DNA of 64,000 nt, taken from NCBI RefSeq assembly GCF_016903815.1, contig NZ_CP069973.1. The stretch is one strand, 5' to 3'. Source of the stretch: Escherichia coli. GTDB taxonomy: Bacteria > Pseudomonadota > Gammaproteobacteria > Enterobacterales > Enterobacteriaceae. A program made the translations under genes and the position numbers. The first letter of the stretch is position 1. Every line of letters starts with the position of its first letter. Positions 28,960 to 30,226 of the stretch are shown here, one piece after another. The notes under the pieces were generated by a model. That model saw only the letters and a list, made by a program, of their open reading frames with translations, was not told where the DNA came from and did no database searches.

Positions 28960-29030
28960 AAGGCCCCGACCGATATTTCTATCAACCGAGGCCAACGAAT
29001 GAACCAAGCAATTCAGATGTTAGCCTCTTA
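28960..29030 (-). ncRNA. sokB: Probable SokB antisense RNA (type I antitoxin); position approximate
   Basis: Inferred from hok/sok architecture: antisense to mokB start region; not delimited from sequence. Confidence 0.3.
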
Positions 29031-29166
29031 CCCGCCATCCGGCAAGGAGAAAGGCTATGAAGCGCAACCCTCTGTTGGTGTGTCTGCTCATTATCTGCAT
29101 TACGATTCTGACATTCACACTCCTGACCCGACAAACGCTCTACGAACTGCGGTTCCGGGACGGTGA
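29017..29166 (+). CDS. mokB: MokB leader ORF overlapping hokB (translational coupling frame)
   Basis: 49-codon ORF starting 40 nt upstream of hokB in a different frame. Confidence 0.55.
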   Translation: MLASYPPSGKEKGYEAQPSVGVSAHYLHYDSDIHTPDPTNALRTAVPGR

Positions 29167-29206
29167 TAAGGAGGTTGCTGCGCTCATGGCCTGCACGTCC
29201 AGGTAA
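29057..29206 (+). CDS. hokB: HokB type I toxin (49 aa membrane peptide)
   Basis: Hand-translated MKRNPLLVCLLIICITILTFTLLTRQTLYELRFRDGDKEVAALMACTSR; Hok family. Confidence 0.85.
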   Translation: MKRNPLLVCLLIICITILTFTLLTRQTLYELRFRDGDKEVAALMACTSR

Positions 29207-29277
29207 GGGCAAGCGCGGGGATTTTCCCCGCGCATCTGACTAGCAGATTCATTTTCTCATGGCACCCCTTTTACACT

Positions 29278-29451
29278 TCAGTTAGTGCATGTTTTTTTCG
29301 ATGCACTAATAGAACCATCATTACAGACAAATTTGCCGCCTGCCGTACAGTGTGAGATCCCCCCTTTCGAACCAGAACAGGGTTTGCGCCCGGCATCGGC
29401 ATAAAAGGAAACAAGCGCTCCTATAACCAAGATGAGTGCCAATTTTTTCAT
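29278..29451 (-). CDS. ydcA: Small secreted cysteine-rich protein YdcA (57 aa)
   Basis: Hand-translated MKKLALILVIGALVSFYADAGRKPCSGSKGGISHCTAGGKFVCNDGSISASKKTCTN; below ORF-track size cutoff. Confidence 0.8.
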   Translation of the reverse strand: MKKLALILVIGALVSFYADAGRKPCSGSKGGISHCTAGGKFVCNDGSISASKKTCTN

Positions 29452-29584
29452 ATAACCTCCATGGTTTATCGAATCTTATGTTCGATTTGAACGTTATACG
29501 CTGGTTTATTTTGATACCGTTGATGAGATCAAAGATCGGGTGAATTGATTAAAGATAAGCCAGATGGACGTATGGATAAGGATT

Positions 29585-29621
29585 ATGGTTTTATTTGTCA
29601 TACAAATAAATATAATAGGCG
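29585..29621 (+). promoter_or_regulatory. Putative sigma70 promoter of rydC (-10 TATAAT at 29611-29616)
   Basis: Consensus TATAAT hexamer about 6 nt upstream of recalled RydC 5' end; -35 not clearly identified. Confidence 0.4.
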
Positions 29622-29685
29622 CTTCCGATGTAGACCCGTATTCTTCGCCTGTACCACGGGTCGGTTTTAGTACAGGCGTTTTCTT
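29622..29685 (+). ncRNA. rydC: Hfq-dependent small RNA RydC
   Basis: Matches recalled RydC sequence CTTCCGATGTAGACCCGTATTCTTCGCCTGTACCACGGGTCGGTTTTAGTACAGGCGTTTTCTT; ydcA-cybB intergenic as in K-12. Confidence 0.8.
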
Positions 29686-29695
29686 TAAATATCCT

Positions 29696-30226
29696 TCAGG
29701 AACGTTTACGCGGCATCATGCGTAGAAGTGTGTTGTCCTTCCAGAAATAGTGGTGTGCCAGTGCAGCCGCAGCGTGCAACCCGATGACAAAATATCCCAG
29801 ATTCGCCAGCATTTCATGCCACGACTTTAAGCTATCAACCCGTTCGAAATTGGCCTCTGATGCATAAGGCATCGTCAAACCAAACGCAAACCACGGGTTG
29901 CCTCGGTTATACATCATCACCAAACCAATCACTGGCAGCGCAATAAACAGGAGATAAATCACCAAATGTCCCAAATGCGCCAGTCCCGTCATCATCGGTT
30001 TTGGCTTAGGTATAATCGGCGGGGTTGGGTATTTCAGCCTTAACAAAAGACGAACGACCATCAGCACGAGAATTGATATGCCACAGGAAACATGAATCAT
30101 GTTGATGAGTGGCCGATCGCTACGTGGGAAGAAACCCCGAAACTCCATTGCGCAATACGCTGCAATAACCAGCAAAAAGACCAGCCAGTGAATGCTGATT
30201 TGTAACCTTGAGTATTTATTTCCCAT
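29696..30226 (-). CDS. cybB: Cytochrome b561
   Basis: Start trimmed to MGNKYSRLQISIHWLVF (176 aa); 4-TM di-haem b561 family. Confidence 0.9.
   Translation of the reverse strand: MGNKYSRLQISIHWLVFLLVIAAYCAMEFRGFFPRSDRPLINMIHVSCGISILVLMVVRLLLRLKYPTPPIIPKPKPMMTGLAHLGHLVIYLLFIALPVIGLVMMYNRGNPWFAFGLTMPYASEANFERVDSLKSWHEMLANLGYFVIGLHAAAALAHHYFWKDNTLLRMMPRKRS

Follow-up and report, generated by a model that had tools for sequence, protein, structure and literature searches.

Which genes fill the interval between trg and cybB in Escherichia coli, and do they form one functional module, a decaying remnant or a chance neighborhood? We addressed this question in a 64,000-nucleotide stretch of the E. 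coli contig NZ_CP069973.1 (assembly GCF_016903815.1), in its full length hereafter called the window. Here, trg (27018-28658, minus strand) on the left and cybB (29696-30226, minus strand) on the right flank an interval of 1037 bp (28659-29695), which holds the toxin gene hokB with its overlapping frame mokB and the antisense RNA SokB, the small genes yncP and ydcA, and the small RNA (sRNA) RydC. In our reading, to which we assign a probability of roughly 93%, this is an ordinary, intact E. coli small-gene cluster, in which four independent units have been packed by chance into about 780 bp.

Layout of the trg-cybB interval

A preliminary description of this region had located hokB, mokB, sokB, ydcA and rydC between trg and cybB, and all of these features match the annotation of E. 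coli K-12 MG1655. Its alignment with the K-12 interval is free of indels and shows 23 substitutions (97.8% identity), so that K-12 coordinates can be transferred to the window (window position = 1521128 − K-12 coordinate). SokB was placed in this way at 28953-29009 (minus strand, K-12 b4429), and yncP at 29184-29252 (minus strand, b4774), where it is also annotated in E. coli strain 7/2. The frames of mokB (28999-29166, plus strand, b1420), hokB (29057-29206, plus strand, b4428) and ydcA (29278-29451, minus strand) are present in the list of open reading frames (ORFs), the latter two with family matches and hokB also with an annotation in strain 7/2. RydC (29622-29686, plus strand) was assigned by an Rfam match and by identity to K-12 rydC. 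All elements are intact and occupy the same places as in the K-12 reference annotation, and their presence is well outside what chance could produce. The entire window differs from the chromosome of strain 7/2 (NZ_CP023820.1, 1725535-1789534) by two mismatches, both distant from the cluster.

Two details of the preliminary description need amending. Its list of small genes, correct for those it named, missed the annotated yncP; and its left boundary at 28960, with the individual items at or near the coordinates it gave, excludes 49 nt at the 5' end of the hokB mRNA (transcription start around 28911) and 7 nt at the 3' end of SokB. Its remark that an ORF track displays nothing here except an antisense frame is accurate: the ORFs of the cluster encode 22 to 57 aa, the default threshold is 60 aa, and the sole entry is a 76-aa ORF at 28982-29212 (minus strand). 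A track with this threshold is blind to a stretch with four small ORFs and two sRNAs.

The identities, coordinates, RNA structures and conservation of the elements, given below, are direct observations. Every one of the elements is already in the K-12 reference annotation, most have dedicated papers, and we see nothing new among them; the trg-cybB cluster is a good positive control for sequence-only scans.

The hokB toxin gene and its messenger RNA

HokB (49 aa) matches the Pfam family HOK_GEF (PF01848, 82.4 bits at a cut-off of 22, E-value 1.7e-23) and the NCBIfam Hok family NF007279 (97.5 bits at a cut-off of 73). Starting upstream of it in another frame, the 55-aa ORF mokB overlaps hokB from 29057 onward, an arrangement which the preliminary description had correctly recognized. 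The mokB frame is open in the window, in K-12, in a divergent Escherichia locus (L010) and in one of two tandem hokB copies of E. coli strain E69 (L011a); in the other copy (L011b) it is frameshifted. Relative to L010, the hokB gene has nine differences in synonymous and three in non-synonymous codons, and its frame appears to be under purifying selection.

Tyr29 and Cys46 are both present in HokB. In K-12, Cys46 mediates the formation of pore-forming dimers, and Obg and ppGpp (guanosine tetraphosphate) induce hokB (PMC11951105). A UACG motif lies at 29141-29144 (plus strand), identical in sequence to K-12, and its adenosine A29142 corresponds to A1491986 of K-12. At this adenosine, adenosine-to-inosine editing by TadA has been shown in K-12 to convert Tyr29 to Cys, yielding a more toxic HokB (PMC12214031, PMC13170351), and the UACG motif is required for the editing (PMC13170351).

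The hokB mRNA, which also encodes MokB, extends from 28911, the position aligned to the first position of the Rfam model, to approximately 29270 (plus strand). Rfam family RF01794, named 'sok', matches 28911-29062 on the plus strand with 111.5 bits (gathering threshold 59, model positions 1-157). As this match runs from the 5' end of the mRNA across the mokB AUG (28999) to the hokB AUG (29057), the model recognizes the sense hok leader and not the antisense RNA; the hokB leader thus fits the conserved secondary structure of the hok family.

The transcript as a whole (28911-29270) has a predicted folding energy of −145 kcal/mol (z = −6.3). In both the minimum free energy and the centroid structure, the tac element at its 5' end (28911-28922, plus strand) pairs with the fold-back inhibition (fbi) element at its 3' end (29255-29267, plus strand, just before the approximate end of the transcript) through 12 Watson-Crick pairs, with a single bulge at U29260. 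When the RNA is truncated at 29262, its 5' end is predicted to switch to a local hairpin (28911-28967, −27.5 kcal/mol, z = −4.4). A tac/fbi switch of this kind is known from the hok mRNA of plasmid R1, through the work of the Gerdes laboratory, and the predicted fold of the hokB mRNA reproduces it. In L010, one U-A pair of the tac-fbi helix is replaced by C-G through a compensatory change (28914 U>C and 29264 A>G). The 3' untranslated region (UTR) of hokB further contains a perfect, G+C-rich hairpin of 9 bp (29213-29233, GCGCGGGGA ttt TCCCCGCGC, 100% complementary), which lies inside yncP and is also present in the predicted mRNA fold.

Six nucleotides before the 5' end of the mRNA, the hexamer TAGGAT (28899-28904, plus strand) is probably the −10 element of the hokB promoter. 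It is invariant across five Escherichia sequences while its flanks vary, is not accompanied by a good −35 element, and falls under the threshold of a consensus scan.

The antisense RNA SokB

SokB, which the preliminary description had positioned by analogy, can be placed at 28953-29009 on the minus strand by the K-12 annotation, by a minus-strand hairpin with a U-rich tail, and by a conserved promoter-like site. As placed, the 57-nt RNA has a single-stranded 5' tail of 16 nt, a hairpin of 14 bp (28993-28962) and the 3' tail UUCGUCUUU; a terminator-like site on the minus strand, again of 14 bp with a U-rich tail, coincides with this hairpin. The minus strand folds with −22.2 kcal/mol (z = −4.5), whereas the plus strand of this segment reaches only −11.8 kcal/mol (z = −2.9), its fold being weakened by the change of four G.U pairs into A.C mismatches. 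Both the Shine-Dalgarno (SD) sequence of mokB (GAGG, 28987-28990) and its AUG lie under SokB, the SD opposite the hairpin and the AUG opposite nucleotides 9-11 of the 5' tail.

The probable SokB promoter (29017-29045, minus strand) comprises TTGCCG (29045-29040), a spacer of 17 nt and TAACAT (29022-29017), followed after 7 nt by the transcription start at 29009. Its hexamers, which agree with the consensus at 8 of 12 positions, are kept in five Escherichia sequences except for one −10 base in K-12. The defining arrangement of hok/sok loci, an antisense gene with its own promoter-like site and terminator hairpin opposite the mok start, is therefore found here, as judged from sequence. In K-12, repression of sokB by CRISPR interference causes a nutrient-dependent growth defect (bioRxiv 10.1101/2020.03.04.975888).

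The Rfam search which the preliminary description had recommended as a check gave a mixed outcome: RydC and 'sok' both scored above their gathering thresholds, yet the 'sok' match is on the plus strand and cannot place SokB. A permissive search (E-value ≤1) of 28600-29800 returned only these two matches, with no Sok on the minus strand and no further RNA. The Rfam 'sok' family thus reports the hok sense leader and is unusable for assigning the strand of the antitoxin. A scan for consensus promoters yielded one match, at 28691-28718 (plus strand) in the trg upstream region, which fits nothing, and it reported none of the hokB, SokB and rydC promoters; these assignments therefore rest on position and conservation.

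Proposed control of hokB and its relation to known loci

For the sequence of events in hokB control and for the activity of SokB we draw on work on K-12 and on the archetypal hok/sok locus, that of plasmid R1, whose mechanism was worked out by the Gerdes laboratory. A weak promoter would give rise to the mok/hok mRNA of about 360 nt, which would be untranslatable as long as tac (28911-28922) is locked to fbi (29255-29267). Trimming of the 3' end would free the 5' end to refold and would expose the mokB start, and translation of hokB would be coupled to that of mokB. SokB, made constitutively, would pair over the SD and AUG of mokB, thereby blocking translation and targeting the duplex for cleavage. 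Any HokB that is made would insert into the inner membrane, dimerize through Cys46 and depolarize the cell, and TadA editing of A29142 (Tyr29 to Cys) would increase its toxicity.

The locus shares with hok/sok of plasmid R1 the Hok/Gef toxin, the overlapping mok frame, the leader of the RF01794 type, a short cis-antisense RNA whose single-stranded 5' tail and terminator hairpin are opposite the mok start, and, as predicted here, the fold-back between the 5' and 3' ends of the full-length mRNA. By these likenesses, hokB/sokB belongs to the type I toxin-antitoxin loci of the hok/sok kind, and mRNA processing and cleavage by RNase III would be expected by analogy. The locus differs from plasmid R1 in being chromosomal, so that it does not serve post-segregational killing; for K-12, hokB has instead been tied to Obg/ppGpp-dependent persistence (PMC11951105) and to TadA editing (PMC12214031).

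Its counterpart in K-12 (b4428, b1420, b4429) is the same locus, with the same neighbors and lengths and with identical tac, fbi, SokB hairpin, UACG editing site and Cys46. The two differ by five substitutions within the transcript of about 360 nt. HokB has R3 and L7 in the window and H3 and V7 in K-12, whereas MokB has Q3, M7 and V27 as compared to L3, I7 and G27; the substitution at 29075 accounts for both L7 of HokB and V27 of MokB. In SokB, nucleotide 4 is U in the window and A in K-12, and the −10 hexamer is TAACAT as compared to TAAGAT.

yncP and other small reading frames

YncP is encoded by a 22-aa ORF antisense to the stop codon region and 3' UTR of hokB; on this strand, the ORF follows ydcA at a distance of 25 nt. 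It is found at the same position as b4774 of K-12 and is identical to it in 21 of 22 residues. In the literature, yncP is among the experimentally verified novel small ORFs (PMC8921622) and, with hokB, is listed as a convergent overlapping pair (PMC12288877); its 22 codons, which come directly after ydcA and face the 3' end of hokB, would thus be translated. A frameshift or a stop interrupts the frame in L010 and L011b, and in L011a it is changed; selection on the peptide is not supported.

A similar layout exists at hokA of K-12, where the 23-aa annotated ORF ysaE starts just outside the fbi equivalent and overlaps the hokA stop codon in antisense orientation; ysaE and hokA, too, are listed as a convergent overlapping pair. 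However, the peptides share almost no sequence, and we rejected homology of YsaE and YncP, only their positions being equivalent. The hokA locus also differs from hokB in the window by an IS150 insertion in its mok leader.

Scans for terminators and inverted repeats found no convincing terminator between ydcA and yncP. Read-through from the ydcA promoter over yncP, fbi, the 3' UTR hairpin and the hokB stop codon (29184-29277, minus strand) might produce a second antisense RNA to hokB, an idea we consider improbable, and nothing supports a regulatory effect of such read-through on hokB. An RNA of this kind would target the 3' lock and not the mok start, and it could act in one of two ways, releasing the inert hokB mRNA from its lock or tagging it for double-strand cleavage. 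If this were true, the layout at hokA/ysaE would imply that chromosomal hok loci in general have, in read-through of the ydcA type, a layer of control not yet described, and the small ORFs yncP and ysaE would be by-products of the antisense transcript.

One further candidate, a 21-aa ORF at 28807-28872 (plus strand), is preceded by an SD-like GAGAG and shows seemingly synonymous or conservative changes between K-12 and the window. We rejected it, as its ATG and frame are lost in L010 and L011a.

YdcA

The 57-aa YdcA had been described as a secreted, Cys-rich protein, and our analysis agrees: it matches the NCBIfam equivalog NF007462 (142.6 bits at a cut-off of 118), carries a signal peptide (MKKLALILVIGALVSFYADA) and has four cysteines in its mature part. 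The gene is preceded by a strong SD (GGAGG, 29460-29456). The N-terminus is hydrophobic, varies in sequence and has A-x-A at its end, where the signal peptide is probably cleaved, leaving a mature part of 37 aa in which C25, C35, C43 and C55 are invariant. A histidine is likewise conserved, being invariant in one of our alignments (A2) and present in at least 90% of the sequences of another (A3).

We found 162 homologs, in Escherichia, Citrobacter, Yersinia, Hafnia, Acinetobacter and Actinobacillus. In the family alignment, the mature peptide is nearly invariant and the signal peptide variable, and all six residues in which YdcA differs from its K-12 counterpart lie in the signal peptide. With its 57 aa, its signal peptide and the mature motif GRKPCSGSKGGISHC...FVCNDGSISASKK.C with four cysteines, YdcA resembles the other members of the family (NF007462; PF27300, an assignment taken from precomputed annotation, as our local copy of Pfam lacks a YdcA model). 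YdcA has been predicted to be periplasmic (PMC11340327), and the literature on ydcA reports control by YdcI, induction by acid and sensitivity of the deletion mutant to 3-hydroxypropionate. These data are consistent with a Sec-exported peptide of 37 aa with four cysteines, probably forming two disulfides, whose conservation reaches from Enterobacterales as far as Acinetobacter.

With a mean predicted local distance difference test score (pLDDT) of 77.6, the AlphaFold model of YdcA is of moderate confidence, and a Foldseek search with it against the PDB gave no significant match, the best being to 7muc chain AN (E-value 0.6, 39% identity over 33 columns). In a separate comparison, the YdcA family profile gave a marginal match (E-value 4.9e-4) to this chain, which is rich in cysteine and belongs to the Legionella Dot/Icm type IV secretion complex. 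The resemblance is weak and unconfirmed.

RydC and its promoter

The preliminary description had given RydC a length of 64 nt and a TATAAT −10 element; the latter is borne out, and the RNA as mapped here (29622-29686) is 65 nt long. RF00505 matches 29622-29685 (plus strand) over 64 of 64 model positions with 92.5 bits (gathering threshold 48, E-value 5e-17), and the sequence is identical to K-12 rydC. A seed at the 5' end (29622-29631) is followed by helix 1 (29632-29639 with 29656-29663), helix 2 (29646-29654 with 29670-29678) and a U-rich 3' end, all on the plus strand.

In an alignment of ten sequences from Escherichia, Citrobacter and Salmonella, the pseudoknot of 17 pairs is kept, with 99.3% of the cells paired as compared to 26-44% in slid controls. 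Helix 2 shows covariation, four of its pairs being changed on both sides; helix 1 never varies and is thus uninformative. Positions 1-18 are invariant in the ten sequences from three genera, but 17 of the 18 (1-10 and 12-18) were already specified in the pattern with which we retrieved the loci, so that the invariance of seed and helix 1 was largely imposed by the retrieval. Three of the 13 loci found with this pattern, in metagenome-assembled genomes of Clostridia, Terrabacteria and Kiritimatiellae, do not match the RydC model and were discarded as chance 18-mers.

The −10 hexamer TATAAT (29611-29616, plus strand) lies six bases before the RydC 5' end and is conserved in 11 of 12 sequences; a perfect −10 without an obvious −35 has been reported for the rydC promoter (PMC11340327). 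The pseudoknot, free seed, U-rich 3' end, TATAAT and cybB as neighbor are all features of the known RydC of E. coli and Salmonella (RF00505).

The spacer of the rydC promoter contains a palindrome, ATTTGT-CAT-ACAAAT (ATTTGTCATACAAAT, 29593-29607), which occurs once in the window. On its own it is not significant if one mismatch is allowed, with 0.29 occurrences expected and 28 of 100 shuffled sequences containing one. Its position is kept in Escherichia, Citrobacter and Salmonella, with the form ATTTGTATGACAAAT in C. koseri, while the DNA further upstream diverges. The palindrome matches the YieP motif atTTGTaTGAcaAAT obtained by chromatin immunoprecipitation with exonuclease treatment (ChIP-exo; PMC7642389), and YieP has been found to repress rydC 20-fold in a study which does not name the site (PMC11340327). 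We infer that 29593-29607 is probably the YieP operator of rydC. In K-12, the first arm is ATTTAT, with an A at 29597 and hence one mismatch, unlike the perfect palindrome of the window.

Extending the K-12 work to the window, rydC would be transcribed from a −10-only sigma-70 promoter that YieP represses by binding at 29593-29607. RydC would act as an Hfq-dependent pseudoknot sRNA, which, according to the literature, pairs through its free 5' seed with targets such as the cfa mRNA.

Synteny, strain variation and alternative explanations

RydC adjoins cybB in Escherichia, Citrobacter and Salmonella. Neither ydcA nor hokB was found in the Citrobacter and Salmonella loci we retrieved around rydC, in agreement with an earlier report (PMC11340327). 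Among the loci retrieved, hokB and ydcA were found at the cluster only in those of Escherichia, whereas the rydC-cybB pair is old; the cluster is therefore an accretion and not a unit.

Within E. coli, the trg-cybB interval was matched in 5416 of 5426 complete genomes, and 4511 of the 5426 have a contiguous hokB leader. The leader yields only partial matches in about 586 genomes and none in 329, so that it is lost or split in about 915 (~17%). Example genomes that we examined have IS150 inserted at about 28986, within the SokB hairpin (L005, 2055-3500), or at 28915-28919, within tac (L006), and IS150 likewise sits in the mok leader of K-12 hokA. In others, deletions extend from the 5' part of trg to 28796 or to 29102 (hokB codon 16), with ydcA, rydC and cybB intact (L007, L008). 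As a separate observation, the hokB locus of E. coli strain E69 (CP089930.1; L011, 1601-2389) is tandemly duplicated between ydcA and trg, with two full Rfam matches to the hok leader and a frameshifted mok in the ydcA-proximal copy.

The losses raise the question of whether hokB/sokB is a decaying remnant, transcribed but no longer toxic or subject to hok/sok-type regulation. It is removed or split in the ~915 genomes, in the examples examined by IS150 insertions or trg deletions, the mok frame of one duplicate copy is broken, K-12 annotates sokB and mokB as putative, and the other hok loci of K-12 are reported to be inactivated (PMC12214031). Yet in the window tac, fbi, the mok frame, the SokB hairpin and the promoter-like site are all intact, change in hokB relative to divergent Escherichia is mostly synonymous, with Tyr29-UACG and Cys46 kept, and in K-12, at 97.8% identity, knock-down of sokB is deleterious and hokB mediates Obg-dependent persistence; we therefore regard decay as unlikely. 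An opposite proposal, that the cluster is one co-regulated envelope module, seems to us rather less likely still. It would combine the HokB membrane pore, an effect of RydC on lipids via cfa, and YdcA as a periplasmic peptide, so that all products concern the envelope. A single YieP site lies in the divergent ydcA-rydC region of 170 bp, and ChIP-exo assigned both genes to YieP; ydcA-yncP converges on and overlaps hokB; and YdcI, a LysR regulator reported to control ydcA, is encoded 2 kb away. The histories of the parts are nevertheless separate: rydC-cybB is shared by three genera without ydcA or hokB in the non-Escherichia loci retrieved, YdcA homologs exist in Acinetobacter and Yersinia outside any such cluster, many strains have lost hokB in events that did not involve ydcA and rydC, and ydcA mRNA is unchanged in a yieP deletion mutant.

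Two further explanations concern individual elements, and we consider both very improbable. From the name of RF01794, 'sok antitoxin', and its plus-strand match of 111.5 bits, one could conclude that SokB itself is encoded by the plus strand, as an RNA of about 150 nt (28911-29062); that match, however, is the sense leader, which cannot be antisense to itself, K-12 sokB is on the opposite strand, and the hairpin with its U-tail belongs to the minus strand, where it is twice as stable. The 76-aa frame antisense to mokB and hokB (28982-29212, minus strand) is the sole ORF of at least 60 aa in the interval and stays open in K-12, L010 and L011a, as might a real gene. The preliminary description had dismissed it as spurious, reasonably in our view, and we rejected it as well: it matches neither Pfam nor NCBIfam, is annotated neither in K-12 nor in strain 7/2, its TTG start is CGG or TGG in other Escherichia, most changes in the frame are non-synonymous, and a conserved coding region can be expected to leave a frame open on its opposite strand.

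None of these four explanations is favored over a known, intact cluster of independent units. Several observations do weigh against that reading in places. The K-12 annotation itself calls sokB and mokB putative, the SokB and hokB promoters match the consensus at 8 of 12 positions or more weakly and escaped the consensus scan, and YncP is unconserved outside E. coli proper. For the YieP operator, the ChIP data and the motif derive from K-12, whose palindrome has one mismatch, and in the literature ydcA transcription does not respond to deletion of yieP. The disruption or deletion of the hokB leader in ~17% of complete E. coli genomes means that the locus is dispensable. Pedersen and Gerdes reportedly suggested in 1999 that the hokB locus of K-12 was inactivated by a point mutation. 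The candidate YieP operator, the recurrent IS150 insertions in the hokB leader and the lead on the YdcA fold are small additions to known biology and imply no new kinds of system.

Other features of the window

Together with hokB (29057-29206), the window contains ortT (4604-4777) and hicAB (12242-12880), so that the three toxin loci, which the preliminary description had placed within about 25 kb, span 24.6 kb. Part of the 250-bp gap between trg and the hokB transcript is occupied by TAAG-N15-GCCGATGA (28699-28733, minus strand), upstream of trg, which resembles a FliA (sigma-28) promoter.

An IS200C transposase gene (17366-17824, minus strand) is found with a match to the Hfq-binding RNA STnc490 of Rfam immediately upstream (17834-17957, minus strand, 146 bits). 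The segment 17366-17957 has the appearance of an IS200 element accompanied by its 5' RNA, located between ydcO and ydcL, where K-12 has a different insertion element (insQ). Beyond cybB, gapC (30415-31416) is intact and encodes a glyceraldehyde-3-phosphate dehydrogenase of 333 aa, whereas it is a pseudogene in K-12. In strain 7/2, ynbB (43407-44303) is annotated as a pseudogene with an internal stop.

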